DNA from: an uncultured Gammaproteobacteria bacterium
Lineage (GTDB): Bacteria > Patescibacteriota > Patescibacteriia > 2-01-FULL-39-33
Direction of reading: 5' to 3'
Length of the DNA stretch: 64,000 nucleotides
Assembly: GCA_964512625.1 (NCBI GenBank)
Contig: CAZEKG010000002.1
Span: 109,393 to 173,392, forward strand
Shown here: piece after piece, positions 2,930-51,614 of the stretch
How the letters are laid out: each line of letters begins with the position of its first letter
How positions within the stretch are numbered: the stretch's first letter is position 1
The notes under the pieces: generated by a model
Databases searched by the model: none
What the model saw: only the letters and a program-made list of their open reading frames with translations
What the model was told of the DNA's origin: nothing
Program-made: the position numbers and the translations under genes

Positions 2930-2946
2930 GATCAATTTCCTAGCCA

Positions 2947-11900: not shown

Positions 11901-13104
11901 TGGTATATTTAAAGCTGATGTAAATGTTTCCGGCTCGCCTGGTAGCTTGGCTGTGGTTTTTGTTTCGGATATTTCCGGATCTATGGACGGCAAAACTAAT
12001 GCCTTGTCTCAGGCGATTACTTCTTCATCTGATGAATTATCTAAGAAATTTGGAGCTAATATTGCTCTAGTCCATTTTCATACTAATACTATAGGTGATA
12101 AAGAGTTAATTGGTGATATGTTTTCTGAGAGCTGTTCAGGTAATTATGATTCTAATGGGGTCTGGAGTAATGGTAAGGATACTAAGTATTGTTGCGCTAG
12201 CTCTAATGGTAGGGGTAATTATTTTTGCAACTCTAGCGATTTATTAACGGGTTTTTCTAGTTTAACTAGCTTTATTAGCGATAGGACAAGTAAGATCTAT
12301 GGGAGATATGTCAATGGGGGTACTCCTACGGCTTCCGGATTAGATAGAGCTAGAGCAATTTTAAATACATCTACGGCAGATAAGAAAATAATTATTTTGA
12401 TGTCAGATGGCATGTATGATGGAATTAATCCTTTAAGTACCTCTACTAATATAAAGGCTGGTGGTACTAAAATATATGTAGCGGCATTTACTACTAGTTC
12501 TACTCTCGCTAATATGATGTCTACATGGTCAAGTAATAATAATAGTTCTTGCGGGAGTGGTTATTGCTATTATAGTGGTAATGTTACTGATTTATATGAA
12601 AATATAACATCTAATATTCAGTCGGAATTGGATTCTTACTCGGTAACTATTTTTAATAATAATACTTATTATTATGGAATAAGTCCCTATACTTATAATC
12701 AATCAAAGTATTCCTGGACGGACGGTTATAGCTCTAAAGTTTCAATTCCTAATACAAGCAATAACACTCCTTCAGGCGTAACTTTATCTGCTTTTACTGG
12801 TTTTTGTGCTCCTTCTAATGGCACAGGTGATTATGTTGGTAGAAGTATAACCGTAAAAACGACTAACCCGATTTCTGCTGGAACTAGCTGGAAGGTTAAT
12901 ATCAGTAATGTAACCATGGAGTATTGTCCTCTTGATCCAGTTGGCTATTCTTCTGATATTAATAATCCGACGCTTGGATTATCTCAATCGAACTCTCAAG
13001 TCGCCGGAGCTTATGAGGAAAATGACAATCTATATCAAAGATTCATTGCTACGATAGCTAATAGTTGGAAATTCCTTTTTTCATCAATCATTAATCTTTT
13101 TTAA
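2947..13104 (+). CDS. Giant (3385 aa) multidomain cell-surface adhesin-like protein. It has a Sec signal peptide and a VirB2/TrbC-pilin-like membrane hairpin. Its modules are EGF-like Cys-rich segments, Myxococcus-type cysteine-rich repeats, thrombospondin type-3 Ca-binding repeats, and a vWA domain with a MIDAS motif.
   Basis: The signal peptide is MRLKKSSQNKLLIILTVLVLFLSFGSAVFA|QT. The hairpin (nt ~3076-3306) is LGGADLKSVIKGIVNVFFSFLGVIAVLILLYGGFVWMTAAGDESKVEKAKKTIIAAVIGLVIIFSAFAIVSFV. Cys-rich repeats of the form CGNGxxExGExCDDGNxxxGDGCSxxC occur 3-4 times at nt ~7792-8160 and again at ~11194-11695. Seven TSP3 repeats (DxDxDGxGDxCDNCxxxxNPxQxD) lie at nt ~10561-11170. The vWA domain (LAVVFVSDISGSMDG ... 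SGLDRARAIL ... KKIIILMSDGMYDG) lies at nt ~11944-12500. A single uninterrupted 10.2-kb ORF. Confidence 0.7.
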   Translation: MRLKKSSQNKLLIILTVLVLFLSFGSAVFAQTQANVDLTNAQMGLGGADLKSVIKGIVNVFFSFLGVIAVLILLYGGFVWMTAAGDESKVEKAKKTIIAAVIGLVIIFSAFAIVSFVFRALNVATGIPGTEPCSNIGEVTSCSTSDNCSGTRYCQASGYWGACLKTDPTCPGDSFYSNQFSYILGFSLAGSGWNKNLGRNFSGTVAVPQSANLFIYGYAHDRENIISEMSLWGSLSSSSEAKLAQFNNLNSVKQLIGSKEYNVVSKASTTWNTSGYAVGDIITLKIKVSTGAFASKNIKAKVYASHCFNGIKDADEKNVDCGGSCSACDGDSCFVATNSTCSGDNCLSGICGDNCKCASLPIIDYISPAKDVNGDSNPYRSETLDDDLPNGAPGNIITIWGRSFGSATGTVIFKDKQSGQQFTSSIAPCKSNNWNNNQLTVLIPQSITNTLNVVDESGVTSTTLNYEVFIETANHLLSEAGKGFQVNKIERPGICNMDPDSGVYPTTTTINGIKFPISGTQNVLWKIKNGSLFETITSTLAKSWTAASVIDTALENKNGVSSVRIYNGSQYSNYFKFLLSSGGLNAPCGLDPRACDQDVTTCNTGLACDKASCTCQKSNTSCSVGEKQVCDNGGCAGDQTCRPDGVFGNCIQRDSKCIPKTDKVSIAGQTFYSWAFLTNPGGNGQSCGYDYWDVCDIKGCGSGLACDTTGTSSPYNINKTPCTCWTKVCEPATVSSTCKAIGKCEARSVCNSQGTAWGECVKVDYTCNPFPEIEPARQAFYSWSFMAFKNDPFNAPEVIEDCNRTITCRDGSKLPSPTPWYNPVVGATDEGWSTTTHPNLVGNVLNPKACVNAIISARFSLPMKLSSFAGNIKIMQMDEASSTWSEIPITVSNYQLLSGGTQLNLNHANFSPATRYKVVLRQGIASDAGVKIKKYNDVIGSDKRDCNVGGINDAAYCWNFVTRAATDPDLLCKEGCPTCSPDPTQMFYYGEEKANNADLDSADNVCLMLNPFNYDWFWDKKSYNNLERIDVTNNDLLKYVAESSTFAYGNDGKNDPYQTSTARGETISDPAKSTKILATLVKTGKAGICYVENDFTNPIVMEDQSCNKGTTQSPSPWKGSTDACINGVISLRFSRNMVNSTLVSGSEKTGTQVIDKQTVNFKYYESHPNIVIQKCNSNTVTSTDINACTDVGVDWKTILFKYSHQTISIADMMASSSENVNELPEGLSILPSSNLDKNQWYRVIIIGGQNGVRGAKIINSNETKDGVLRGTNNSPLTDMNGDGEDDYYWIFKTASDKCPINSVTVLPFSKFMKFVSETQTYNAWPQAANCNILNPLTYNWNWKALIDLNDDRSDNTDPGTGNDIVKVCSVNNTTCSSYDNPTSFQVNATGESEGLVNLKARALDTAKTGEDWTRDKWGYSVLQVGYGGFYIRKHSPDSTKCLNPEITALFSLDAKSESINLGSNFSLYKCQGGNCNTEKELAELSPLGLGTANANPFLSNLLRTEPKVYLEASSTYRVIAKSGESGLKAWNGNSLTGLNYRTSGTGNGEQCDKDAYPWKEFSGLCTDKCLISTSTAFADLCSYQKGRFAECKYTTSTAAYCDNTCHALGNTNTGSCGNGKLEAEEECDDGNFKDGDGCSSRCLLGGSSDKWGSVCGNGKREYGELCDDGNRRGGDGCSSACLTDSRKMGTATSSPVCGNSRVEFGELCDDGNKISGDGCSNKCLLEGSSNGAVCGNKVMENGQNDSYAWDFKVESNAQECLGPNLENNPCPNGIWRVNFPDSNNMEGTKYNQFSIKVWQKSSVDAGSCEVIAQGFWKTIFRKVKVAVLRLFGQTASAADYWCPFIEEQAFGASDLTEMKKGNYVRTFDNPGVSNAGQIIAYTDEVGNYIINFARTDAASWPANDYKMTLSYTRDLINQEINTDIKFAISRNACPINDVMVNVWPKGEERKDDTFFCAGNDCGSKTADPYDDDMSANWTYSKNGYDLKEGVGYLGGNQHLYRAWALTNRYGRPMVVQANFNWDMEHIPFNTKTTSSDFSLTTYNGDKWITSGDVGGRDLLNVTASDVNTLASTTVMIRTFLCNNPWPTPAKFPYIDSRVNCANPANCVNTNFELFYCRDSGDKETTDDDLPALTPDNPIVVPGASGSEIVKEFIFPRADKTTSSDAVGLRVMNNSGNALAVSKIYLSPAEWYFNQFDKARQGKPKGLVVDGYQAVEEGRTAYVSAADLNENLGNAFNNIYLLSYNDKADQGTRNIYSQILSNLTFNTGEAENGGLLDSAGSCTNNPAYKCFTDKDCKGFGFCDSPKSRITRDTKRLADISDINLGLEKYKAVKRCSNDHSKTCLSSSVCADNGTCGNYYPTLTSGTYVANNSLSSWLSWESTLAAALGMILPVDPRNELSGCTGSYSSTTCWSEIKKEMACPSDSSFNYFYHADKNPTSTIMGTAKILGTKCEYCVNSNGDDIWSNSDYTNSIFGPTNSVIRSFCIDKVKETCGNGISDIANGENCHNCPSDFKAACSNGAVCQNLGTNISPNWQCKAYDTDGDNFSDAIDNCKYVKNGWNWPGLCIANGNASQSYLCDQFDSDRDGVGNACDNCYQALGPNDKPDPSNKDSDGDGIGDACDNCLNKWNPGQEDDDGDKVGNTCDNSKDVKNGASGNNMTCPLSTPQSYCNQKDTDGDGVGDASDNCLNKKNPDQKDSDTDGLGDVCDNCPTKANPDQKDGDLDSYGDACDNCPTTFNPNQDSRACYNPNCGNGAQDRGEACDCGTDPNNIPSTCNYINNFNVNILDIEYNKSVRVCMNNCQLDQKFEGPKCGDGIKNGAESCDNGSQNGVVPAAGGYGQPAVEYCTTECQIASVASPRCGDGTIQSGEVCDTPNQDGCAPDCKSKCGNGIVEKAQGEICDDSNGNSGDGCSSTCRVVETGYNCFYRFVSGRLESVCQSICPPDRGVGRWTSEVLKYGNNNTSNNFGTIGSVYNSWLQVPKCKSFSGIFKADVNVSGSPGSLAVVFVSDISGSMDGKTNALSQAITSSSDELSKKFGANIALVHFHTNTIGDKELIGDMFSESCSGNYDSNGVWSNGKDTKYCCASSNGRGNYFCNSSDLLTGFSSLTSFISDRTSKIYGRYVNGGTPTASGLDRARAILNTSTADKKIIILMSDGMYDGINPLSTSTNIKAGGTKIYVAAFTTSSTLANMMSTWSSNNNSSCGSGYCYYSGNVTDLYENITSNIQSELDSYSVTIFNNNTYYYGISPYTYNQSKYSWTDGYSSKVSIPNTSNNTPSGVTLSAFTGFCAPSNGTGDYVGRSITVKTTNPISAGTSWKVNISNVTMEYCPLDPVGYSSDINNPTLGLSQSNSQVAGAYEENDNLYQRFIATIANSWKFLFSSIINLF
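3050..3320 (+). repeat. ~270-bp direct repeat. The coding sequence for the pilin-like hairpin domain is duplicated between the two giant genes; the partner copy is at nt 1-270.
   Basis: By eye, nt 1-270 and ~3050-3320 align at roughly 75% nucleotide identity. Examples: ggcggagccgatcttaag vs ggcggggcagatctgaaa; tatggcggttttatttggatgacggctgg vs tatggcggttttgtctggatgacggctgc; tttgctattgtttcttttgtt vs ttcgctattgtttctttcgtc. The encoded protein segments match. Confidence 0.6.
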
Positions 13105-28639: not shown

Positions 28640-30775
28640 ATGCCCCGCAAACAACCATTAGAAAAAATTAGGAATATAGGCATTATCGCCCATATCGATG
28701 CTGGTAAAACGACTGTTTCCGAACGCGTTCTTTTTTATACCGGTAAGAAGCATAAGATCGGCGAAGTCCATGAAGGTGAAGCTACTATGGATTGGATGGA
28801 ACAGGAAAGAGAAAGAGGTATTACCATCACTTCTGCGGCTACGACTTGTACTTGGAAAAATGCTGATTGGTTGGGTGGCGGCGAAATCCAAATAAATTTA
28901 ATTGATACTCCGGGTCACGTTGATTTTACAGCTGAAGTAGAACGTTCTCTTCGAGTCCTCGACGGCGGCGTTATTGTTTTTGACGGCGTAGCCGGCGTTG
29001 AACCTCAATCGGAAACAGTTTGGAGACAATCTGAAAAATATCATGTGCCTAAGATCGGCTTCGTCAATAAGATGGATAGAATGGGAGCGGATTTTTATAA
29101 GGACTTAGATTCTATTCATGAAAGATTGACTTCTCATGCTCATCCAATCCAACTTCCAGTCGGAGCGGCTGAGACTTTCAGAGGTATTATTGATCTTCTT
29201 GAGATGAAGGCGGAAATTTATCTTGATGATCTTGGAACAAAGTGGGAGATTACTGATGTTCCGGAAGATGAAATAGAAAGAGCGAAAAAATACCGAGCTG
29301 AGTTAGTTGAGGCGATTGTTGAAAATGATGAAGCTTTAATGGATAGATACTTGGCAGGTGAAGAGATCTCTATTATTGATTTAAAAAAGACTTTAAGAAA
29401 GGCAGTTATCGCTAATAAGATTGTGCCTATTATTTGTGGCAGTGCTCTAAAGAATAAAGGCGTCCAATTCTTGCTTGATGCTGTATCTGAGTATTTGCCT
29501 TCACCTTTAGATGTTCTACCTCCAGTAGCTCATGATGTTGATGATGAGACTAAAGAGATCATGGTTAAAGTTACTGATGATGCTCCTATGGCCGGTTTAG
29601 CTTTTAAGATTGCTACGGACCCCTTTGTCGGTAAATTGGTTTTCTTTAGAGTTTATAGAGGTGTTTTAAAGTCAGGTTCTTATATCTTAAATAACTCCAA
29701 TGGAAATAAGGAAAGAATCGGAAGAATTCTCAGGATGCATTCCAATTCTCGAGAGGAAATAGATGAGGTTTACGCCGGAGAAATTGCTGCGTTAGTCGGT
29801 TTTAGGGATGTAACTACCGGAGATACGCTTTCTGATCCTAATACTCCTATATTGTTAGAGAAGATCGTTTTCCCTGAGCCAGTTATTGATATCGCTGTTG
29901 AGCCAAAGACTAAAGCTGATCAAGAAAAAATGGGCTTAGCTTTATCGAAGTTGGCTGAAGAAGATCCTACTTTTAGAGTTAAGACTGATGAAGAAAGTGG
30001 CCAAACTATTATTTCCGGTATGGGTGAGCTTCACCTGGATATTATCGTCGATAGAATGAGACGGGAATTTAAAGTCGAAGCTAATATCGGCGCTCCTCAG
30101 GTTGCCTATCGAGAAACTATTCGTAAGACAGCAGAAGCTGAAGGTAAGTATGTTAGACAATCAGGCGGTCGAGGTCAATATGGCCATTGCTGGATTAGAA
30201 TCGAACCGCTGGAGCCTGGCAAAGGCTTTGAATTCGCCGAAGAAATCAAGGGCGGCGCTATTCCTCGAGAATATATCAAGCCGATTGAAAAAGGTATTAA
30301 AGAGGCTTTGACTAGGGGTGTAGTAGCCGGATATTCTTTGATTGATGTTAAGGCAACTGTTTATGATGGATCATACCATGACGTCGATTCATCTGAAGCA
30401 GCTTTTAAAATCGCCGGTTCCTTGGCTTTGCAGGAAGCTGTTAAGAAAGCAGCTCCAGTTATTCTTGAGCCGATTATGAAAGTCGAAGTTACGACCCCTG
30501 AGCAGTTCATGGGTGACGTTATTGGTGATCTTAACTCTCGAAGAGCTTTGATTAATAAAATGGAAGATAGAGGTTCTGGCGCGGCTTTAACTAAGGTTAT
30601 TACTGCTAATGTTCCTCTTTCTGAGATGTTCGGCTATGCGACTCAATTACGATCTATGACTCAGGGTCGAGCTAATTACAGCATGGAATTCTTGCATTAC
30701 CTTGATGTGCCGAAGAATGTGGAAGCCCAAATCGTAGAAGGTAGAAAGGGTACGGAAAAGAGAATCCAGTCTTAA
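28640..30775 (+). CDS. fusA: Elongation factor G
   Basis: The G-domain motifs are [24 protein letters not shown] and NKMDR, followed by the domains II-V signatures. Confidence 0.9.
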
Positions 30776-30887: not shown

Positions 30888-31916
30888 TTAGAATTTGAAC
30901 TGAGCTTTTGCTAAAAGCCGGTTGTCCTCCGGCCCATCAACTACGGTCTCGTAGTCGAGGGTAAGGGAGCACCGGTCTTTTTTATCCATAAGACGGACGC
31001 CGTTGGTCCAGTAGACGCGCTTGGCGTCGCTAGTTTGGATTTCAACGGTTTCCGTCTTGAACTGACCGCTCTCTCGGTCGAACTTCGTGTTAGTCTCCTC
31101 ATAGGTCTTGGAGATGTCCCCAAGGTAGTCTACCTGGGAGTGAAGCTCGAGCCAAGGAGTGGCCCGGTAGGCGACCTGGACATAGCCGCCGAACTGGTCG
31201 CTAACTTCGATGCTCTCGTATCTTGTATAGCAGAGAGCGCCCATTAAGTTCCAGTGATTGTCTGGCTGCCACGCAGTGCTCACGCCGAAGCGTTGGAAAT
31301 CTTGGCAGAGCTGCGTGTAGCCGGCGATGTTTCCTGATCCTGGTTTGCCCTTTTCCCCAAATTGCTGCCTCAGCATGGCAGACAATTCAATCCTGTCGAA
31401 GGAGTGATCGTCGTCGAAGGCCAGACCGGAACGACCCGTTACATCGAAAACCAGGCTGACGCTTTCCGATAGCTGTCCCTCGACTTGCGCGCCGTAGGCA
31501 TAGCAGGGGAAGGTCATACTACTCGGATAAGCGACAGTTCTTAAGCTGTAAGCGTCAGGAGTGCTGTTGCCTGCAGCCAGGAATATTCTCCCCGCTTTCA
31601 GGCTCCAGTTATCATTTACCTTATACTTCACCCAGACTTCTCGAAGCCAATTAGAGTCGATTTGTCCGTCGTTGAACGGCAGATTGACTTGGGTGGAGGC
31701 CTCCCATCGCTCACTGCTCCAATCAGCTTTCAATCGGAGATTGTTCCATTGGAACTCGTCCGATGAAGTGGTGGTTTCCGCGTAGCTGGCTTGAGTCCAG
31801 CCACTTATTTTCAAAGTCGGTTCCTGACCGACCTTAACATCTTGCAGTTCGGCCGGCGCCGAGTGGGTGAAGCCGAAAAAGGTGGCGAGGACGATGGTGA
31901 CAAAAAACTTCTTCAT
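30888..31916 (-). CDS. Secreted beta-barrel outer-membrane-protein-like (porin-like) protein. Its GC content is markedly higher than the surrounding genome.
   Basis: It has a signal peptide (MKKFFVTIVLATFFGFTHSAPA) and alternating amphipathic beta-strand patterns (WSLKAGRIFLAAG, YVQVAYRATPWLELHS, SLTLDYETVV). The C-terminus is aromatic (KAQFKF), which is typical of OMP barrels. GC is roughly 50-55% against a high-30s background. Confidence 0.45.
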   Translation of the reverse strand: MKKFFVTIVLATFFGFTHSAPAELQDVKVGQEPTLKISGWTQASYAETTTSSDEFQWNNLRLKADWSSERWEASTQVNLPFNDGQIDSNWLREVWVKYKVNDNWSLKAGRIFLAAGNSTPDAYSLRTVAYPSSMTFPCYAYGAQVEGQLSESVSLVFDVTGRSGLAFDDDHSFDRIELSAMLRQQFGEKGKPGSGNIAGYTQLCQDFQRFGVSTAWQPDNHWNLMGALCYTRYESIEVSDQFGGYVQVAYRATPWLELHSQVDYLGDISKTYEETNTKFDRESGQFKTETVEIQTSDAKRVYWTNGVRLMDKKDRCSLTLDYETVVDGPEDNRLLAKAQFKF

Positions 31917-33160
31917 GAGAAACTCCTTTTCTGCTTTTGGCAGTCAAGGAAAGGCTTCTTCACAAGAAGTTTTAGTTCCTCGACTGCCGGCGGACCTCTT
32001 GGACTCGCATTTTTGAACCAACGCAGTTCAGATGGAATCCAAAATCTCTCTTCAAAAACCACTCTTACGAACCTCCAGTCCGGTTGAACCGAATGTTCGA
32101 ATTCGATGACGGGGTGGTCGCTGCCGACCGATCCTTTCTTTGTATTTCCGTCGTCATCTTTTTTGTCAACTGAAACTAAAGTCGTAACCACAGCGGCATT
32201 CGACTTCAGTATTACCAGTAGTCTAGCGATACTTGGTGTCAGGCTAATTAGCGAAATAGTGAAACAAATCAGCGCGGGTCTAGTAACCCGTCCGCCAGAT
32301 TGCCTAACTCTTTCCATGGCCTGATCGAACCTGACTAGAGGTTCTTCGGCTTGGAGCCAAAGAGCGGCTTCCTCTTCAGAGGTAAGCCAGAAGTTGCCAC
32401 TTCTCTTCTTTATATACTGACTTCTCAGCTTATAGTACCTTTTATTTTTGGCACCTTTTTCACTGATGGTTAGTATGCCTATGGGCCCGAAGAGGCTGGC
32501 GAGTATCAATCTAGACCAGCCTAGAAGGAACTCCTCTCGAACTTTTTCACCCTTAAACCTCTTGTTTAGAAGTAGGATGAAGATGCTTGGCGCTGTCATG
32601 AGCATGTACCATTTCAGCAACCAAAGAAAAAAGTTGAGCAGATCTTTCGATGATAGAGATATCTGCTCCCCATTTTCCTTTAGTACTTGGTCTTGGGCCT
32701 CTATGATACTGCTATTGAATCGCATTCCTGCTTCCTGTCGACGAGCGGCTTCATCGGTAGAATAAAGTTGCTTATAGTACTTTGGCGCCTCTTCGGCAAC
32801 TTTCCAGTTCCTAACGAAACATTCTCTAGCGAGATCGATAACTACTCGATCACTTGACTTTCCTGTTAGTATGACTGGAAGATTTTGCTTTAGAATAACC
32901 AAGCGATATTGAATGCGTTGCGCCTCTAGCGGTGTTAGAGTATTTGCCTCAGATTTTTTCTGGGCTTCCAGTAGTAGGGAGTTCATTTGTTCCTGCGCAG
33001 CTAGGCATTCTTGGCTACTGCAAAAAGATTTCTCTTTTTGCCATTTTTGACTTACCCAACTCCAGTCTGCGAAGACTAGAATAGTAACCACTATCGCCAC
33101 CCAACTCAGAATTACCTGAGCGAGAGGCTTTGGCTGGTCATAACTTTGGTAGTATGACAT
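31913..33160 (-). CDS. Hypothetical multi-pass membrane protein. It is GC-rich and overlaps the porin-like gene by 4 nt, so the two are co-transcribed.
   Basis: An N-terminal TM helix (VILSWVAIVVTILVF) and internal TM helices are present, with no recognisable catalytic motif. It is upstream in a 2-gene minus-strand operon and has elevated GC. Confidence 0.4.
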   Translation of the reverse strand: MSYYQSYDQPKPLAQVILSWVAIVVTILVFADWSWVSQKWQKEKSFCSSQECLAAQEQMNSLLLEAQKKSEANTLTPLEAQRIQYRLVILKQNLPVILTGKSSDRVVIDLARECFVRNWKVAEEAPKYYKQLYSTDEAARRQEAGMRFNSSIIEAQDQVLKENGEQISLSSKDLLNFFLWLLKWYMLMTAPSIFILLLNKRFKGEKVREEFLLGWSRLILASLFGPIGILTISEKGAKNKRYYKLRSQYIKKRSGNFWLTSEEEAALWLQAEEPLVRFDQAMERVRQSGGRVTRPALICFTISLISLTPSIARLLVILKSNAAVVTTLVSVDKKDDDGNTKKGSVGSDHPVIEFEHSVQPDWRFVRVVFEERFWIPSELRWFKNASPRGPPAVEELKLLVKKPFLDCQKQKRSFS

Positions 33161-33762: not shown

Positions 33763-33941
33763 AATCAAGCGTATTTTATAATAAAACATTAATAAAACTA
33801 ATAAACTAGCGGACCTGGCTAAAACTCCTGCAACCGCCGAAACCTTAGTAAAGGCGACTCTCTAACTTAAAAGTCCTGAGAATCGCATCTTCACTAGTGT
33901 TGCGGCTAAGCAAGGGGGTCCCTATAACAAGGATAAATAAA

Positions 33942-35129
33942 ATGGCAGAACAATTTGACAGAAGCAAGCCGCATCTAAATGTCGGCACCATCGGTCACGT
34001 AGATCACGGAAAAACCACTTTAACCGCTGCTATCCTTCAGGTTCTTGGCGCTAGAGGCGGTAAGGCCCAAAACAAGTCAGTCGATCAGATCGACGCTGCT
34101 CCGGAAGAAAAAGAGAGAGGTATCACTATTGCTACCGCTCACGTCGAATATGAGACTGAAAAGAGACATTATGCTCACGTTGACTGTCCTGGTCACGCTG
34201 ACTACATTAAAAACATGATTACTGGTGCTGCTCAAATGGATGGCGCCATTATCGTTGTTGCTGCTACTGATGGTCCTATGCCTCAAACCAGAGAACACAT
34301 TCTCTTGGCTAGACAAGTAGGTGTACCATACATCGTTGTCTTTATTAACAAAGTTGATCAAGTTGATGATCCTTCACTTATCGATCTAGTTGAAGAAGAA
34401 GTCAAAGATCTTTTGAAGAAATATGAATTCCCTGGAGACACAACCCCTATTATCAGAGGTTCTGCCTTAAAAGCTTTGGAAAATCCAACTGGTCCTGAGG
34501 GTGATTGTATTATACAGCTTATGGATGCTTTGGACACATATATTCCTGAACCTCAACGCGCTACCGATTTGCCTTTCATGATGCCGATTGAAGATGTTTT
34601 CTCCATTGAAGGCCGAGGTACAGTAGTTACTGGAAGAATTGAAAGAGGTATTATTAAATTGAGCGAAGAAGTTGAAATCGTCGGACTTAAGCCGACTATG
34701 AAATCAGTTGTTACTGGTATCGAAATGTTTAACAAGAATCTTAACGAAGGTATTTGCGGTGATAACGCTGGTATCCTTTTAAGAGGTATCAAGAAAGAAG
34801 ATGTTGAAAGAGGCCAAGTTCTTGCTAAACCGGGAACAATCACTCCTCACAGCGAGTTTGAAGCCGAGGTTTACATCTTATCTAAGGAAGAAGGCGGAAG
34901 ACACAAACCTTTCTTTAAGGGTTATAAGCCACAATTCTACATTAGAACTACCGATGTAACTGGTGAAATTGAATTGCCAGAAGGCGTCCAGATGGTTACT
35001 CCTGGAGATACAGTAACCTTGACTATTAAACTTGGTAAGAGCGTAGCTATGGAAGATAAGATGAAATTCTCTATTAGAGAAGGCGGACATACGGTTGGAG
35101 CTGGTGTAGTTACTAAGATTATTAAATAA
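33942..35129 (+). CDS. tuf: Elongation factor Tu
   Basis: It begins [27 protein letters not shown] and carries DCPGHADY and NKVD. It is very highly conserved. The ORF-track start at 33897 is an in-frame upstream extension. Confidence 0.9.
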
Positions 35130-45092: not shown

Positions 45093-46367
45093 ATGCTCAA
45101 TAAACTTACTCAAATTTGGAAGATAAAAGATTTGCGCAATAGCATTCTTTTCGTCTTCGCGATGTTGGTTATTTTTAGATTAGTAGCCCATATCCCTATT
45201 CCGGGAATCGACGCTACGGCTTTAAGAAGGCTTTTCGAGAACAATCAGCTTCTTGGCTTAATGAATATCTTCTCCGGCGGCAGCATGCAGAATTTTTCCG
45301 TTATCATGCTTAATGTAGCTCCTTATATCACAGCTTCCATTATTTTCCAGCTATTGACTATGGTAGTTCCTAAGTTGGAAGCTCTTTCTAAAGAGGGCGA
45401 ATATGGTCGAGGCCAAATCAATAAGTGGACTCGTTGGTTGACAGTTCCTTTAGCCGCTTTGCAGGCTTATGGTATGATTGCTATTTTAAGGCAGTCTTCC
45501 GGCGGAGTAATTTTAAGTTTTACTCTTTGGCAGATGTTTTTAAGCATCGTTACGATTACTGCCGGTACGATATTTATGATGTGGATCGGAGAGCTTATTA
45601 CGGAAAAAAGAATCGGTAACGGCATTTCTTTAATTATCTTTGCCGGTATCGTCTCCGGTTTACCAGGTTCAGTCGCCAAGACTTTATCGACCTATTCTCA
45701 GGCGGATATTATCAATATGGTTATTTTCGCGGTTATCGCTCTAATAACTATCGTTTCTGTTGTTGTTATAACTGAAGGTCAAAGAAATGTTCCAGTTACT
45801 TACGCAAGAAGAGTAAGGGGTAATAAAACTCTTGGCGGTAGTTCAACTCATTTGCCGATTAGAGTTAATCAGGCGGGTGTTATTCCGATCATCTTCGCTG
45901 TTTCCATTATCCTATTTCCGCCGATGATTGCTCAGTTTTTTTTAAGGGTAAAGACGGAATGGATCGTTTCCGGCGCTCAGTGGATTATTCAATTATTCCA
46001 AAACCAGTTATTTTACGGAATCTCTTATTTTGTTATGGTTGTGGCTTTTACTTATTTCTATACGGCAGTCATTTTCCATCCCGACCAAATTTCCGAAAAT
46101 CTTCAAAAGCAAGGCGGTTTTGTTCCGGGTATTAGACCAGGAAAGAATACGGCTCATTATCTTCAGAAAATCGTTACCAGGATAGTTTTTACTGGCGCTC
46201 TATTCCTTGGTATTATCGCTGTCTTACCTTTAATTACCGCTCAAATAACCAGTACTCAAAGCTTGGTAATCGGCGGTACTAGTTTATTGATTGTCGTTTC
46301 AGTAGTTATTGAAACCGTTAACCAAATAAACGCCCAGCTATCCATGAGGGATTACGAAGAAATCTAG
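45093..46367 (+). CDS. secY: Preprotein translocase subunit SecY
   Basis: It has ten TM helices and the motifs GIDATALRRLF and LMNIFSGGSMQNFSVIMLNVAPYITASIIFQLL. It sits after rplO. Confidence 0.9.
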   Translation: MLNKLTQIWKIKDLRNSILFVFAMLVIFRLVAHIPIPGIDATALRRLFENNQLLGLMNIFSGGSMQNFSVIMLNVAPYITASIIFQLLTMVVPKLEALSKEGEYGRGQINKWTRWLTVPLAALQAYGMIAILRQSSGGVILSFTLWQMFLSIVTITAGTIFMMWIGELITEKRIGNGISLIIFAGIVSGLPGSVAKTLSTYSQADIINMVIFAVIALITIVSVVVITEGQRNVPVTYARRVRGNKTLGGSSTHLPIRVNQAGVIPIIFAVSIILFPPMIAQFFLRVKTEWIVSGAQWIIQLFQNQLFYGISYFVMVVAFTYFYTAVIFHPDQISENLQKQGGFVPGIRPGKNTAHYLQKIVTRIVFTGALFLGIIAVLPLITAQITSTQSLVIGGTSLLIVVSVVIETVNQINAQLSMRDYEEI

Positions 46368-46395
46368 GTTAATTTCCAATTTCTAAAAAAAGATA

Positions 46396-46428
46396 AAAAT
46401 ACCTTAATCCGTCGAGGTATTTTTATTG
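46396..46428 (+). terminator. Possible terminator after secY (hairpin plus T-run)
   Basis: The hairpin AAATACCT-TAATCCGTCG-AGGTATTT has a large loop and is followed by TTATTGTT. Confidence 0.35.
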
Positions 46429-46482
46429 TTATATTATATTTAATGTTGTAAGATGAGAGCATTAAAATTATTTTTTACAAAT

Positions 46483-46538
46483 AAAAAGCCCCGCACGATT
46501 TATTGGGTTATTGGGCTTTACCAATAAATCGTGCGGGG
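46483..46538 (-). terminator. Strong rho-independent terminator (minus strand) for the 129-aa gene
   Basis: An 18-bp perfect inverted repeat, CCCCGCACGATTTATTGG / CCAATAAATCGTGCGGGG, is followed on the minus strand by TTTTT. Confidence 0.6.
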
Positions 46539-46549
46539 TGAGAGCATCT

Positions 46550-46939
46550 CTAGGAGATTATTATCCTCGGCCTCTCTGGGCCAAGGTCGGCGACGTGGTT
46601 GATAAATTTGCCAATTTTCTCTTCCTCAATGCCTGACTGTCGGAGCAGCTCCTCGATAGTTGTTTTGTCCGCCGGTGCCGACGGCAAGGAGTAGTGCTCA
46701 GGTGTTAATCCTTTGTACCCCTTAAGACTCCCGCCATGCCTTGGCCAGAACACCGTTTTGACTTCTCCGCTTGCCAGTAGAGAACTGACGAACGCGTTTA
46801 TCGCCTCCTGATGTTCGGGGTACATACAGCAAGGACAAATTTCACTCAGCTCTCCTCTAAAAAGAGATGCAAGCATCGCGACATTACCTTGTTGAAGGAT
46901 GACGAATGTGTGTTCACCATGTCGAGTTATCTCTTTCAC
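46550..46939 (-). CDS. Hypothetical small (129 aa) Cys-containing protein with a CPCC motif. It is GC-rich relative to the genome and transcribed divergently from the radical SAM gene.
   Basis: The sequence is MKEITRHGEHTFVILQQGNVAMLASLFRGELSEICPCCMYPEHQEA... . It has no signal peptide or TM helix, and GC is about 50%. It shares a 205-nt AT-rich divergent promoter region with the 47145 gene. Confidence 0.4.
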   Translation of the reverse strand: MKEITRHGEHTFVILQQGNVAMLASLFRGELSEICPCCMYPEHQEAINAFVSSLLASGEVKTVFWPRHGGSLKGYKGLTPEHYSLPSAPADKTTIEELLRQSGIEEEKIGKFINHVADLGPERPRIIIS

Positions 46940-47144
46940 TGGAGTTCTCCTCTTTTTTATTAGTTGGCATGTTAGTATGTCAACATTTCAGTATATTATA
47001 ATAAGAAAATTTTGTCAAGTGCTTATGCACGGACTAATATTATATATTTATTTAAAATTAGCTAAAATTTATTCAATAAACTTGTAGTAGTTATGTATTT
47101 TTGATAAAATAGTCATGTATTGAAATATTAATCTTAAAAAAAAT

Positions 47145-48227
47145 ATGAAGCCCAACAATCTTGAAAGTGTCAGAATATTAAGTGTAGAGCAAGAAGAACG
47201 AGAAGCAAATTATTTGATTGATTATCTTTATGGCTTGTATCCTGAGCAGGATGGTGTTTTTACTAATGAACAATATCAAAATGCTCATCAGGCTATCATG
47301 GATTCTTTTTTATATACTGATGCGAAAGTATATTTGACTCGCCAATGTAATGGCGAGTGCCCATTCTGTCTGACTGATATGCGTCCAACAACAAGGGAGG
47401 TTGAGGATCAGGAATTCCTTGAGAAGTTTAAATCTAATATTGATGAATATTATAATAAACTAGGCCGAAAGATTTTGTTTACTGGAGGTGAACCTACTAT
47501 CAACCCCAAGAGATTATTGGGTTGCTTGGAGGTGCTAAAGGATTATGATATGGATTTGGTTGTCTTATACACAAACGGCACAAAATTATCAGAAGAGATA
47601 GAATATAAAGGAGTTAGTAAGCCATTACTGGATCATTTAAGGGATTGCGGTCTGAGGAATATTAATCTTTCCGTTCATGATTATGACGCAGAAAGAAGAA
47701 CGGAGCTTTCTCATGAAATTGGCAAAATGGATACGGAAGCGCTCATTAAAGATATTATTGAATCTGGAATTAATTTAAGGTTGAATTGTACATTAATGAA
47801 GGACTTTATTGGTGATAAGGAAGCAATAGTAAAGTATATTGAATGGGCAAATAAGAATGGCGTAAGAGATATATATTTTAGAGATTTGTTTGAATTTGTT
47901 AAGAGAGATAAAAGCACATTAAGGCAAACACCCAGCAGCATGCAAAAATTAAAATTTACTGACGACCAAAGGATTGATTTTTGGAAGTTGATTGAAAGTA
48001 TGGACGAAGAAGATGGTTTTAAGCTTGAGCAACAAATGTTTAGACATAAAGATTGGGGTAGTACTTTTGTATTTACTTATACACCGACTAAATCTCAAGT
48101 TTCTTTTGGCCATTTAAATATAGGAGGAGAGAATGCCGAAGAGGATACTTATTACGCAATTCATCCAGATGGGATAAGAACTAGAAATATGAACGTGGCA
48201 GAAAATACTGTTGAGGAGAGTGAATAG
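47145..48227 (+). CDS. Radical SAM enzyme with a single 4Fe-4S cluster, of the viperin/MoaA-like subclass. It has a ~65-aa N-terminal extension and no C-terminal auxiliary Cys cluster.
   Basis: The sequence LTRQCNGECPFC (CxxxCxxC) resembles viperin FTRQCNYKCGFC and MoaA TDRCNLRCTYC. The motifs ILFTGGEPT, LYTNGTKL and INLSVHDYDAERR follow the TIM-barrel core pattern of that subfamily. After residue ~206 there are no further Cys residues, which rules out a MoaA-type second cluster or a SPASM domain. Confidence 0.6.
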   Translation: MKPNNLESVRILSVEQEEREANYLIDYLYGLYPEQDGVFTNEQYQNAHQAIMDSFLYTDAKVYLTRQCNGECPFCLTDMRPTTREVEDQEFLEKFKSNIDEYYNKLGRKILFTGGEPTINPKRLLGCLEVLKDYDMDLVVLYTNGTKLSEEIEYKGVSKPLLDHLRDCGLRNINLSVHDYDAERRTELSHEIGKMDTEALIKDIIESGINLRLNCTLMKDFIGDKEAIVKYIEWANKNGVRDIYFRDLFEFVKRDKSTLRQTPSSMQKLKFTDDQRIDFWKLIESMDEEDGFKLEQQMFRHKDWGSTFVFTYTPTKSQVSFGHLNIGGENAEEDTYYAIHPDGIRTRNMNVAENTVEESE

Positions 48228-48336
48228 TAAAATTAAGCATATTAATCCAATGAATTACCAATCTACTGGCAGGTAGATTACCAAGTCTCAGTTGGAATGA
48301 TGATAGTAATAAATTAATAATTGATAAAAATAAAAT

Positions 48337-49014
48337 ATGTTTAAAAACGAAAAGCCGTTCGAAATTATCCTTCTTGGTCCGCCAGTTTCCGGTAAGGGAA
48401 CGCAAGCCGATTTAGTGGCGGCAACTTTTGACGTGCCTCATATTTCTACTGGTCAAATCCTTCACGCTATAAAAACTGACGCTGAAAATCCTTTAGCAGC
48501 GGAAGTCGCTTCTTATATCGATTTTGGGAAGCTAGTGCCTTCTGAATTGGTTAATAAGTTAGTCGTAGATAGGATAAAAAAAGAGGATTGTAAAGCTGGT
48601 TATGTGCTTGACGGCTATCCTAGGACTCTTGCCCAGGCCGAGTTTATCAATCAAAACGCTGATGTGGATTATGTTTTTATCATTGACGTTAAGGATGAAG
48701 TCATTATCGAGCGTATGGCGGGTCGCCGGGTTTGCAAGAATGGCCATGCTTGGCATTTAAAATATTCTCCGAGTAAGGTAGAGGGTATTTGTGATACTTG
48801 CGGCGAAGCTTTATTTCAGCGGGATGATGATAAGGAAGAGACAGTTAAGAATCGTTTGGATATTTATCATACAGAAACTGATCCGATTATTAATTTTTTT
48901 GAAGCTAAGGGCTGCTTGATTAGGATTGACGGTGAACAGCATATCGAGGGTGTTTATCAGCAAATCGTAAGAAGGATGGTTAGTGATTTAAGAAAGCAGA
49001 TAGGTTGGAAATAA
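48337..49014 (+). CDS. adk: Adenylate kinase with a variant (Cys-His / Cys-Cys) LID motif
   Basis: It has the P-loop ILLGPPVSGKGTQA. The LID is RRVCKNGHAWH ... CDTCG. The C-terminus is standard. Confidence 0.9.
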   Translation: MFKNEKPFEIILLGPPVSGKGTQADLVAATFDVPHISTGQILHAIKTDAENPLAAEVASYIDFGKLVPSELVNKLVVDRIKKEDCKAGYVLDGYPRTLAQAEFINQNADVDYVFIIDVKDEVIIERMAGRRVCKNGHAWHLKYSPSKVEGICDTCGEALFQRDDDKEETVKNRLDIYHTETDPIINFFEAKGCLIRIDGEQHIEGVYQQIVRRMVSDLRKQIGWK

Positions 49015-51092: not shown

Positions 51093-51614
51093 ATGACGGT
51101 TTCAGATAGAGCAGCGTTAAGCGTAATTCCCATGAACAGGTCGGCCGTCAAGCGGTTTTTACCTCATCGCAACGCCATGTTGCTTATTGATGAGGCTGAG
51201 ATCTATCCCGGTCAGGAGATTGTCGGGTCAAGGATTGAGGCCCATAAGTTTCTTTCCCCAAGCTCCTTGCATTTCGACGGTCATTTTCCGGGGTTTTCGA
51301 TCTTTCCGGGCATGTTGACGGCCGAAGGCCTGGCGCAAGCCAGCGCCTTGTTATACGCCTATCTAAAAGACGGCGAGTTTGAGGATATGATCGTCGTTTT
51401 GAGTGAGGTAAGGAAGATGAAATTACTTTGCCCTGTTCGTCCTGGTGATACGCTTCATTTTCGGGCCGAGATTATTATGGCTGACGGCCCGAAATGCGCT
51501 TGCAAGGTCCGGGCCTACATTCTTACCTTAAGGAAGGGTGGTAAGTTTCGAGAGATAACCGTCGCCAAGGGCGAGATCGAAGGCATGGCCATTGCCAAAG
51601 AAAAATTGGCCTAA
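51093..51614 (+). CDS. fabZ: FabZ/FabA-like hot-dog-fold 3-hydroxyacyl-ACP dehydratase. It is GC-rich relative to the genome.
   Basis: The motifs are LPHRNAMLLIDEA, HFDGHFPGFSIFPGMLTAEGLAQA (the catalytic His and Glu are in FabZ positions) and PVRPGD. GC is about 50%. Confidence 0.7.
   Translation: MTVSDRAALSVIPMNRSAVKRFLPHRNAMLLIDEAEIYPGQEIVGSRIEAHKFLSPSSLHFDGHFPGFSIFPGMLTAEGLAQASALLYAYLKDGEFEDMIVVLSEVRKMKLLCPVRPGDTLHFRAEIIMADGPKCACKVRAYILTLRKGGKFREITVAKGEIEGMAIAKEKLA

Follow-up and report, generated by a model that had tools for sequence, protein, structure and literature searches.

The window, by which we mean the whole 64,000-nt stretch of DNA that was analysed, holds secY and adk at a distance of 1,969 bp, and between them lie two divergent genes, one encoding a 360-aa radical SAM protein and the other, on the minus strand, a 129-aa protein with a CPCC motif (ORF129). 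The features of the locus are, in order:

45093..46367, plus strand: secY, 424-aa ORF, left flank of the insertion
46392..46427, plus strand: AT-rich hairpin 3′ of secY, weak terminator candidate (inverted repeat, RNA fold)
46489..46538, minus strand: intrinsic terminator of ORF129, 18-bp perfect stem with a 14-nt loop
46550..46939, minus strand: ORF129, ORF for the 129-aa small CPCC-motif protein, compositionally foreign
46940..47144, no strand: AT-rich divergent spacer of 205 nt (direct reading of the sequence)
46990..47018, minus strand: sigma-70-type promoter of ORF129, TTGACA-17-TATACT, 11 of 12 matches
47101..47129, plus strand: weak promoter-like site of the radical SAM gene, TTGATA-17-AATATT with TG extension, 9 of 12 matches
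47145..48227, plus strand: radical SAM gene, ORF of 360 aa, single-cluster
47346..47369, plus strand: codons for C68-x3-C72-x2-C75, the [4Fe-4S] ligands, invariant in 17 of 17 aligned homologues
48228..48336, plus strand: spacer between the radical SAM gene and adk, keeping the adk-proximal −10-like box TGGAAT (48293–48298) and leader
48337..49014, plus strand: adk, 225-aa ORF for the housekeeping adenylate kinase, right flank

Comparison with related loci indicates that the secY–adk segment is a lineage-specific insertion in a Patescibacteria genome. The window SecY shares 53–80% identity with its counterparts at 70 Patescibacteria loci. Of 80 related loci, 63 carry adk downstream of secY; the remaining 17 either lack it at the locus or stop short of it at a contig end. 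Sixteen relatives have a SecY at least 70% identical to that of the window, and in 14 of these the secY–adk gap is 17–300 bp as against 1,969 bp, in keeping with the first-pass annotation, which had proposed an insert of ~2 kb between two normally adjacent genes. Of the other two, one carries an unrelated insert of 1,016 bp (L029) and the contig of the other stops before adk (L019). That annotation had also set out what would speak against an island, namely that the pair is core to this locus throughout the lineage; all 80 related loci lack both the radical SAM gene and ORF129.

In relatives, the secY–adk spacer contains a GC hairpin with a −10-like box after it. Aligning these spacers with the window brings out invariant T..AAT columns, and the window box has been retained to the right of the insert. 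In the reading we favour, a genome close to Candidatus Buchananbacteria gained ~1.9 kb in this spacer, after the terminator of secY and before the promoter of adk, and adjacency to adk is the result of where the insertion landed and not a dedicated kinase partnership. The site had been thought exceptional for an insertion, a view that is not supported: in relatives a terminator and a promoter belong to the junction itself, and in 13 other Patescibacteria it holds unrelated genes (Na/Ca exchangers, a signal-peptide peptidase, an AAA_18 kinase, or GNAT with AstE and TrpR). It is for these reasons a permissive landing site, used recurrently in Patescibacteria, rather than an inviolable operon junction. 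As for mobile-element signatures, no integrase or transposase was found at the insertion, and the sole flanking direct repeat (46384–46401/48315–48332, 15 of 18 matches), being of low complexity and AT-rich, was not taken for a target-site duplication. An exact look-up of the SecY sequence gave no match; an Adk at least 90% identical to that of the window was encountered on a 1.8-kb contig (P0025).

The insert is bounded on its left by the predicted hairpin 3′ of secY, a 12-bp perfect inverted repeat whose RNA fold forms a 14-bp stem (−13.4 kcal/mol, z = −3.4) with a U-rich tract on its 3′ side. A consensus terminator scan did not call this hairpin (46392–46427), and we keep it as a weak candidate. 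The hairpin ending ORF129 (arms 46489–46506 and 46521–46538) is real, as first described; it folds on the minus strand at −32.8 kcal/mol (z = −6.9) and has CUUUUUAUUUG after it. Beyond the radical SAM gene, the spacer that leads to adk showed no convincing terminator, its sole hairpin reaching z = −1.4 in the RNA fold. The divergent spacer (46940–47144) does have the AT-rich character ascribed to it, with a GC content of ~0.25 and the near-consensus promoter for ORF129; a search of it for a palindrome found none.

In composition, too, ORF129 is foreign, as had been noted from its GC content of about 50%: GC is 0.497 and GC3 0.53, against 0.35–0.42 and 0.30–0.40 in neighbouring genes, and its GTG start follows a GAGGAG. 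The radical SAM gene is native-like in composition (GC3 0.30); it has an A-rich upstream region and no Shine–Dalgarno sequence, a lack shared by 52 of the 59 long ORFs in the window. The promoter, Shine–Dalgarno sequence, terminator and protein homologues of ORF129 together establish it as a real gene. A hidden structured RNA was also considered for 46540–46940, but Rfam at gathering thresholds returned only two tRNAs across the whole window, and a permissive scan returned sub-threshold hairpin matches only.

An exhaustive phmmer and profile search found just two homologues of ORF129 (P0022 and P0023), making a three-member family. The CPCC motif occupies residues 35–38; both homologues have CPCCM in common with ORF129, and P0023 also the longer CPCCMYPEH. 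Residues C35, C37, C38 and H43 form a plausible, putative Cys3-His metal site, H43 being replaced by Cys in P0022. The AF2 model (pLDDT 70) has a four-strand sheet with helices. Against Pfam, NCBIfam and PADLOC the protein gave no match, and the match in PHROGs was non-significant (E 0.041); neither the 50,697 phage records searched by tblastn nor IMG/VR gave anything for it. Two large repeat proteins (TPR, astacin) that suggested a wider CPCC kinship were low-complexity false positives.

The radical SAM protein scores above threshold for one family only, PF04055 (53.4 bits, cut-off 29.5). Its cluster motif, LTRQCNGECPFC, covers residues 64–75, with the ligands C68, C72 and C75 invariant across 17 aligned family sequences, and the core motifs GGEP (114–117), TNG (143–145) and S-V-H-D (176–179) are all present, the first-pass annotation having recognized GGEP, TNG and SxD. 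The protein can be divided into three parts:

residues 1–58: two-helix N-terminal extension
residues ~59–250: partial TIM-barrel core
residues ~251–360: cysteine-free β-sheet C-terminal domain

An N-terminal extension had been described at ~65 aa; it is present, and measures ~50–55 aa against short homologues. It is common to P0002 and duplicated in P0003. The last cysteine is C215, and the C-terminal 145 residues are without conserved Cys across the family; from this cysteine-free domain it follows that the enzyme has no auxiliary [4Fe-4S] cluster, in agreement with the original statement that it has no second Cys cluster and is neither a MoaA nor a SPASM enzyme.

Among defined families, HMM, profile and structure comparisons all place this single-cluster enzyme nearest to MoaA and viperin. 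MoaA is its best HMM, profile and Foldseek match, and the two share CX3CX2C, GGEP and TNG motifs and an xRLN strand (PDB 1TV7/2FB2). K61 aligns with MoaA R17, K109 with MoaA K69 and R212 with MoaA K163, all three conserved counterparts in the family. R17 is one of three MoaA arginines mutated in PDB 2FB2, all of which presumably bind GTP. One reading is that the protein is simply the housekeeping GTP 3′,8-cyclase of molybdenum cofactor synthesis; robust clustering with a housekeeping family had been named as an outcome that would refute the first proposal. The scores are 57.8 bits against a cut-off of 284 (TIGR02666), one fifth of that value, and 49.7 against 325 (TIGR02668); the best MoaA E-value among the 17 family members is 2.8e-19, far from the level implied by the 284-bit cut-off. 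The C-terminal Cys triad of MoaA is missing, with no cysteine past C215 and none conserved in the family. Of the basic residues with which MoaA binds the phosphates of GTP (R17, K69, R71, K163), R71 aligns with a leucine (L111); R192, R266 and R268 lie outside the aligned region. Nor is there a molybdenum cofactor context: no moaB/C/D/E, moeA or mog was called at annotated family loci, where the family's partners are instead TrmB and SDR genes, and the gene is missing from 80 of 80 related loci. The missing auxiliary cluster effectively refutes a MoaA identity, to which we attach next to no probability.

The same alignments bear on viperin, the family to which the enzyme had at first been likened. 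The TRQCNxxCxFC stretch around the cluster is almost identical to that of viperin, and the proteins are of similar size, with a single cluster in a partial (β/α)6 barrel closed by a C-terminal region (PDB 5VSL, 6Q2P, 9DFN). In the aligned viperin chains, K109 matches the Lys that precedes GGEP and R212 the Lys of a β-strand (KLN). We take these viperin lysines to be K120 and K220 in mouse numbering, and K61, K109 and R212 to be counterparts of the basic residues that hold the nucleoside triphosphate in MoaA and viperin. The peptide-modifying PqqE has H and T where K109 and R212 align. The viperin HMMs nevertheless score far under their curated cut-offs (NF038283, 41.7 bits against 180; TIGR04278, 14.9 against 450), and the pVip models of PADLOC, which has no curated cut-off, give 45.3 and 38.2 bits. 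These matches span only residues 63–152 or 62–218, the generic SAM-binding half, stopping short of the enzyme's C-terminal half; no similarity ran the full length of the protein, through the C-terminal extension with which viperin binds its substrate. MoaA models outscore viperin models in 17 of 17 family members. The first viperin β-strand carries, ahead of TRxCN, an N-x-H(F) motif that is absent here, the alignment to 9DFN and 9DFU placing K61 and Y63, almost invariant in the family, in its stead. Tes/GDGT-MAS (PDB 7TOM) was also compared: Tes is ~500 aa long, has further clusters and takes membrane lipids as substrates, and the enzyme falls far under the 450-bit cut-off and has no lipid-synthesis neighbours.

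Searching 5.8 billion proteins returned 18 homologues of the enzyme, and a metagenome scan added seven further full-length matches, two of which (L099, L102) are loci already counted. The family numbers ~25, spread over CPR bacteria and DPANN-like archaea. None lies on a viral contig in the homologue searches or the metagenome and IMG/VR scans, and a phage origin was considered through tblastn of 50,697 phage records and IMG/VR, which gave only generic N-terminal radical SAM matches at 23–31% identity. A recurrent neighbour is a divergent TrmB gene, separated from the family gene by a conserved spacer motif, in L005/L099, L012/L102/L013, L101 and L105; TrmB is also visible upstream in the DNA of L100 and L104, and in L014 a B12-type radical SAM gene stands between TrmB and the family member. 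Against the background TrmB is rare, with one match in 934 kb of Patescibacteria DNA. The conserved spacer of the archaeal TrmB loci is CTATTACTCTACACTTAGTGGGGGATTATATTTATA; the spacers, compared by eye, showed neither this motif in the window nor an operator common to these loci and the window.

In L097 and L100 the family gene has an SDR gene overlapping its 3′ end, the SDRs being orthologues at 56% identity, and the gene order in L004 is GT2-GT2-rSAM-NTP_transferase-PfkB. Bacterial contexts are inconsistent (a Liv-type ABC transporter, pyruvate kinase, mraZ, glycosyltransferases), and the window locus has neither SDR nor sugar genes. At several family loci toxin–antitoxin modules and an integrase lie nearby (PIN/MazE, HEPN/NTase, PemK), neighbours that are also expected of a defence gene. 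A literature search found no paper describing the radical SAM family or a TrmB–radical SAM module.

A rival reading makes the enzyme a divergent pVip that would turn an NTP into a chain-terminating 3′-deoxy-3′,4′-didehydro-NTP for antiviral defence, with adk supplying nucleotides. Besides the single cluster and the lysines aligned with K109 and R212, such a role would suit a family that is rare, patchy across two domains of life and found in variable regions with toxin–antitoxin genes and an integrase, and 12% of bacterial pVips adjoin a nucleotide kinase (bioRxiv 10.1101/2023.09.13.557418). The adk of the window is however an ordinary housekeeping gene, found in the same place in relatives without the enzyme, not a dedicated kinase, and the only defence-type neighbours are scattered toxin–antitoxin modules. 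No PADLOC partners and no viral-contig members accompany the low, SAM-half-only viperin scores, the higher MoaA scores and the Lys-x-Tyr substitution. The recurrent partners are TrmB, SDR and ABC-transporter components, none of which, to our knowledge, is a usual pVip neighbour. We judge a viperin identity improbable, and an antiviral-defence role of the insertion, as first suggested, is unsupported.

The two genes of the insert had also been put forward as an undescribed two-gene module, and the CPCC protein might indeed act as substrate of the enzyme or as its metal, Fe-S or electron-donor partner. The genes are divergent, adjacent and joined by the common 205-nt spacer, and the four candidate ligands of ORF129 would make a plausible metal site. 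A CPCC homologue is absent, though, from each of the 21 family loci covered (by tblastn at 14 loci, or by ORF listing) and from the called genes around a further member, P0006, and neither of the two other CPCC loci holds a radical SAM gene of the window enzyme's family. The numbers differ as well, with three CPCC proteins to ~25 enzymes. The enzyme shows none of the marks of a SPASM/twitch peptide maturase: it has no C-terminal auxiliary-cluster cysteines, no conserved precursor partner, and in Pfam no PqqD/RRE or other peptide-recognition domain. GC3 (0.53 versus 0.30) and Shine–Dalgarno use are sharply unlike, which argues for separate acquisition, ORF129 appearing as a GC-rich, Shine–Dalgarno-bearing, small metalloprotein-like gene from a different source. 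A functional pair therefore seems unlikely to us, and the two genes are probably independent of each other.

Independence is weakened by an indirect link, in that both CPCC homologues lie near TrmB genes: in L096 the CPCC gene is divergent from a TrmB–APH–620-aa radical-SAM-like operon, and L095 has two TrmB genes within 6 kb. The two families are each tied to divergent TrmB, itself otherwise rare, which can be counted in favour of a pair. More speculatively, the radical SAM family, the CPCC family and the ~250-aa TrmB-like regulators could form one undescribed system confined to the ultra-small cells of CPR and DPANN, a proposal we judge improbable. A metabolite-sensing TrmB would there switch on a MoaA-like, auxiliary-cluster-free radical enzyme, whose product, a modified nucleotide or sugar, could possibly act against viruses or as an effector between cells; its dedicated reductant or cluster donor would be the CPCC metalloprotein, since such cells have few generic electron carriers, and the window would be a bacterial variant that lost its regulator.

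The explanation we favour, by a little over an even chance, is that two probably independent genes were inserted, one of them encoding an uncharacterised MoaA/viperin-type radical enzyme for a small anion. The enzyme itself is most likely a regulated small-molecule radical enzyme acting on a nucleotide or sugar phosphate, an assignment drawn from three aligned basic residues and heterogeneous neighbourhoods. On a MoaA/viperin-type partial TIM barrel with one CX3CX2C [4Fe-4S]/SAM site, the reduced cluster would cleave SAM to a 5′-deoxyadenosyl radical, which would take hydrogen from a small anionic substrate such as a nucleotide, nucleotide-sugar or sugar phosphate. Where relatives carry a translationally coupled SDR, ketoreduction may come after the radical step, itself a dehydration or an oxidation. 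AprD4/AprD3 and DesII, radical SAM enzymes (with a reductase) that act on sugars, offer an analogy to these SDR pairs, although structural similarity to them is weaker than to MoaA or viperin and the window is without SDR or sugar genes.

In archaeal members the gene would be controlled by the divergent, metabolite-sensing TrmB-type regulator, and such control points to conditional metabolism rather than immunity. As it stands, the family is one among many uncharacterised radical SAM subfamilies. Its reaction, if worked out, would add a new activity, on a MoaA-like scaffold without a second cluster, to a branch that already counts a cofactor cyclase and a nucleotide dehydratase with an antiviral role among its enzymes. 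The family is almost confined to CPR bacteria and DPANN archaea, two groups about whose metabolism little is understood. The TrmB partner provides a practical route to the substrate, as the ligand of the regulator is probably either what the enzyme acts on or what it makes.

Between secY and adk the window holds a gene for a 360-aa radical SAM enzyme and ORF129, a minus-strand gene for a 129-aa CPCC-motif protein. The first-pass annotation had described an island here, and its gene order, coordinates and ORF129 composition agree with what we find.

Features of the secY-adk segment (genes from the ORF listing)
45093-46367, forward strand: secY
46392-46427: AT-rich hairpin after secY (fold -13.4 kcal/mol, z = -3.4)
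46489-46538, reverse strand: 18-bp perfect hairpin (fold -32.8 kcal/mol, z = -6.9), then a U-tract
46550-46939, reverse strand: ORF129; Shine-Dalgarno GAGGAG 7 nt ahead of its GTG start
47018-46990, reverse strand: sigma-70 promoter of ORF129 (11/12 consensus matches)
47145-48227, forward strand: radical SAM gene, 360 aa
48293-48298: -10-like box TGGAAT, with the adk leader
48337-49014, forward strand: adk, with map next downstream

By its SecY protein, the organism falls within the Patescibacteria, near Candidatus Buchananbacteria (top genome matches 70-80% identical). Sixteen relatives share a SecY identity of 70% or more; in 14 of them secY and adk lie 17-300 bp apart, against 1,969 bp in the window, one (L029) carries an unrelated insert of 1,016 bp, and the contig of another (L019) stops short of adk. 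The spacers of relatives contain a hairpin rich in GC downstream of secY and then, ahead of adk, a conserved -10-like box (TAGAAT or TAAAAT); in the window, box and leader are kept to the right of the insert. The proposed secY terminator exists as a hairpin, though an AT-rich one, weaker than that of ORF129. Neither protein was found by tblastn in 80 related loci, so the pair is not universal at this position, and the segment is an island relative to species-rank relatives. In this lineage secY and adk are not tightly joined within one operon. In 13 other Patescibacteria loci the gap measures 700-2,400 bp, and Pfam scans of a sample identified there two Na/Ca exchangers, a signal-peptide peptidase of presenilin type, an AAA_18 kinase and, on the opposite strand, a GNAT, AstE/AspA and Trp-repressor-like set (examples at L036, L043, L075, L037/L046/L057 and L076). 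Since unrelated genes occupy it elsewhere, the junction is a recurrent, permissive landing pad, and the insertion is therefore less surprising. RNA folding gave no convincing terminator between the radical SAM gene and adk, and transcriptional read-through into adk is possible. Overall, the original observation is confirmed and its interpretation only partly supported. The enzyme gene is an insertion into an intergenic site that tolerates such cargo, and the small foreign protein encoded next to it is unrelated.

ORF129 stands out in composition, with a GC of 0.50 and GC3 of 0.53 against 0.35-0.42 and 0.30-0.40 in its neighbours. Its perfect hairpin was correctly read as a terminator, and given the fold energy and U-tract it is a good intrinsic one. 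Pfam, NCBIfam, PADLOC and PHROGs gave no family assignment, and exhaustive phmmer (1.84 billion representatives) and profile searches (5.8 billion proteins) recovered P0022 (161 aa) and P0023 (111 aa) as the sole true relatives. All three proteins carry CPCCM (CPCCMYPEH in ORF129 and P0023, CPCCMDTHC in P0022) and a downstream G-E...W...L-x-x-Y-x-G-L pattern. Together with the CPCC cysteines, residue 43 (His, His or Cys across the three) could plausibly complete a four-ligand metal site. In the AlphaFold model of ORF129, which is of moderate quality (pLDDT 70), helices accompany a four-strand sheet.

The radical SAM protein has the cluster motif C68-x3-C72-x2-C75, inside LTRQCNGECPFC, together with GGEP, TNG and S-V-H-D motifs. 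With no cysteine beyond C215, it is a single-cluster enzyme and not of the MoaA or SPASM type, as had been suggested from the sequence. The only model it passes is the generic PF04055 (53.4 bits, threshold 29.5). All NCBIfam models score it far under cut-off, including MoaA (TIGR02666, 57.8 bits, cut-off 284), viperin_w_prok (NF038283, 41.7, cut-off 180), viperin (TIGR04278, 14.9, cut-off 450) and Tes (rSAM_GDGT_ether, 35.2, cut-off 450). In the HMM scan MoaA was the top model for 17/17 aligned homologues, none of them near any cut-off. A confident AlphaFold model (pLDDT 89.4, pTM 0.86) comprises a two-helix N-terminal extension, a partial barrel and a C-terminal beta-sheet domain; the extension, put at about 65 residues in the first-pass annotation, measures ~50-55 against short homologues. 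Foldseek matched the model to MoaA (E = 2.3e-12, TM 0.55-0.60) and to the viperin-like 9DFN (E = 1.4e-9). The viperin likeness noted by eye thus holds for a predicted fold in the MoaA/viperin neighbourhood, which does not choose between the two, and not for membership of the viperin family.

In residue-level alignments K61 corresponds to MoaA R17, K109 to MoaA K69 and to the Lys preceding GGEP in viperin chains, and R212 to MoaA K163 and to the Lys of the viperin KLN strand. We take the three MoaA residues to bind GTP, and the two viperin lysines are presumably K120 and K220 in mouse numbering. The peptide-modifying PqqE has His and Thr in place of K109 and R212. Judged from these alignments, the protein appears to retain the anion-binding residues of nucleotide-binding members. 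However, it has K-x-Y where viperin has N-x-H/F on the first strand, Leu for MoaA R71, and none of the MoaA auxiliary-cluster cysteines. These differences make it neither MoaA nor viperin; MoaA proper is excluded because the auxiliary cluster is missing. The protein is a new, very rare variant in the MoaA/viperin branch of the radical SAM superfamily. A defence enzyme of the prokaryotic viperin (pVip) type is very unlikely, the kinase neighbour being the sole attractive cue: this kinase is the housekeeping adk in its normal place, the published pVip-kinase linkage is mostly to CMPK2-like kinases (bioRxiv 10.1101/2023.09.13.557418), and the protein falls outside pVip by HMM score, full-length similarity and first-strand motif, the PADLOC pVip matches (45 and 38 bits) being confined to its N-terminal SAM-binding half.

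Searching 5.8 billion proteins gave 18 members of the radical SAM family, and a metagenome scan seven further full-length matches, two of which (L099, L102) were loci counted before; phage and viral sequence searches found no member on any viral contig. The alignment resolves three groups: a long bacterial form that carries the N-terminal extension (window protein, P0002, P0003), a bacterial short form, and a short form on contigs of ~31-34% GC. As archaeal-type features adjoin the third group (archaeal CCA-adding enzyme, RIO1, TATA-box promoters), its contigs probably derive from DPANN-like archaea. In nearly all of these loci it is transcribed divergently from the gene for a ~250-aa TrmB-family regulator: the pair is present at L005/L099, L012/L102/L013, L101 and L105, the TrmB N-terminus is seen in upstream DNA at L100 and L104, and at L014 the two are separated by a B12-type radical SAM gene. 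TrmB is otherwise rare, 934 kb of Patescibacteria loci, a sample biased to ribosomal regions, giving 1 match. A conserved motif of ~35 nt, CTATTACTCTACAC[T/C]TAGTGGGGGATTATATTTATA, is common to the spacers (L005 5856-6000; L101 1758-1865; L100 ~430-509; L104 ~260-335; L012 5919-6000) and likely combines a TrmB operator with a BRE/TATA promoter of archaeal type.

L012 has a second divergent TrmB and radical SAM pair (10105-11942; also L013, L102) at a distance of 4 kb, its 329-aa enzyme belonging to a different family and its spacer being related (…CTACTACCCCCTAAGGGAGAG…), which suggests that these archaea use such cassettes repeatedly.

Bacterial neighbourhoods vary, and include GT2-GT2-rSAM-NTP_transferase-PfkB (one locus), a Liv-type solute-binding protein directly upstream (two cases), pyruvate kinase and mraZ. 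In two family loci an orthologous short-chain dehydrogenase (SDR, 56% identical) overlaps the 3′ end of the family gene. Toxin-antitoxin modules and an integrase close to several family loci fit an accessory, mobile gene. The long-form extension follows the pattern E-x-x-NYL-x-x-YL-x-x-x-[YF]PE-x-[DE]G-x-F-x-x-EQY, and in P0003 (L001 6001-7248) this two-helix unit is duplicated in tandem.

The enzyme combines a complete cluster site and SAM-binding motifs with a MoaA/viperin-type barrel lacking a second cluster, its conserved basic residues align to nucleotide-phosphate-binding positions of MoaA and viperin, and its relatives bring a metabolite-type regulator (TrmB) and a coupled reductase (SDR). 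Reductive cleavage of SAM would generate a 5′-deoxyadenosyl radical, which may abstract hydrogen from a substrate that is small and anionic (nucleotide, nucleotide-sugar or sugar phosphate); in relatives with the SDR, ketoreduction could follow. AprD4/AprD3 is a radical dehydratase/reductase pair, and the proposed sequence would resemble it.

The idea that the enzyme and CPCC protein form a two-gene module found no counterpart in other genomes. By tblastn or ORF listing, a CPCC homologue occurs in 0/21 radical SAM family loci, none is among the genes called around one further member (P0006), and neither other CPCC locus contains a family member. The two genes are also built differently: 52 of the window's 59 long ORFs, the radical SAM gene included, have low GC3 and no Shine-Dalgarno sequence, and ORF129 is one of four GC-rich ORFs that bear one. 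On these compositional grounds they most likely arrived separately. The P0022 gene (L096) is divergent from an operon (2106-5815, reverse strand) encoding TrmB, an APH-type kinase and a 620-aa radical-SAM-like protein with a B12-binding-like N-terminal region, a non-canonical C-x10-C-x2-C and a weak Pfam Radical_SAM match, and at the P0023 locus (L095) two TrmB genes lie within 6 kb. Both families thus associate with TrmB, a link that argues weakly for a functional pair; we read it as a hint and do not count it in favour of a module. That TrmB, the radical SAM enzyme and the CPCC protein form one system restricted to CPR and DPANN organisms seems to us improbable.

Across the window, native genes essentially lack Shine-Dalgarno sequences, an A/T-rich '...aaaatATG' upstream type preceding 52/59 long ORFs, and the motif is found in 4/4 GC-rich ORFs. 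Taken with GC3, its presence is therefore a practical indicator that a gene of this genome was acquired recently.

A second island (30888-33160, reverse strand) lies in the conserved str operon, between Pfam-confirmed fusA (28640-30775) and tuf (33897-35129). Its two minus-strand, GC-rich genes have Shine-Dalgarno sequences; one (342 aa, GC 0.53, GC3 0.65) has a weak Porin_O_P match (22.6 bits), odd for a Patescibacterium, and the other (415 aa, GC 0.45) has no Pfam match. A 173-aa protein with a FabA-like dehydratase domain (51093-51614, forward strand; PF07977, 5.8e-14), encoded just past recO-like and ruvX-like genes, is likewise foreign in composition (GC 0.50, GC3 0.58) and has a Shine-Dalgarno sequence. 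At the start of the window, a 937-aa ORF (116-2929, forward strand) and a giant 3,385-aa ORF (2947-13104, forward strand) are probable surface or adhesion proteins, given their N-terminal T4SS-pilin-like segments and Big_5, thrombospondin type 3, DUF4215 and VWA repeats.
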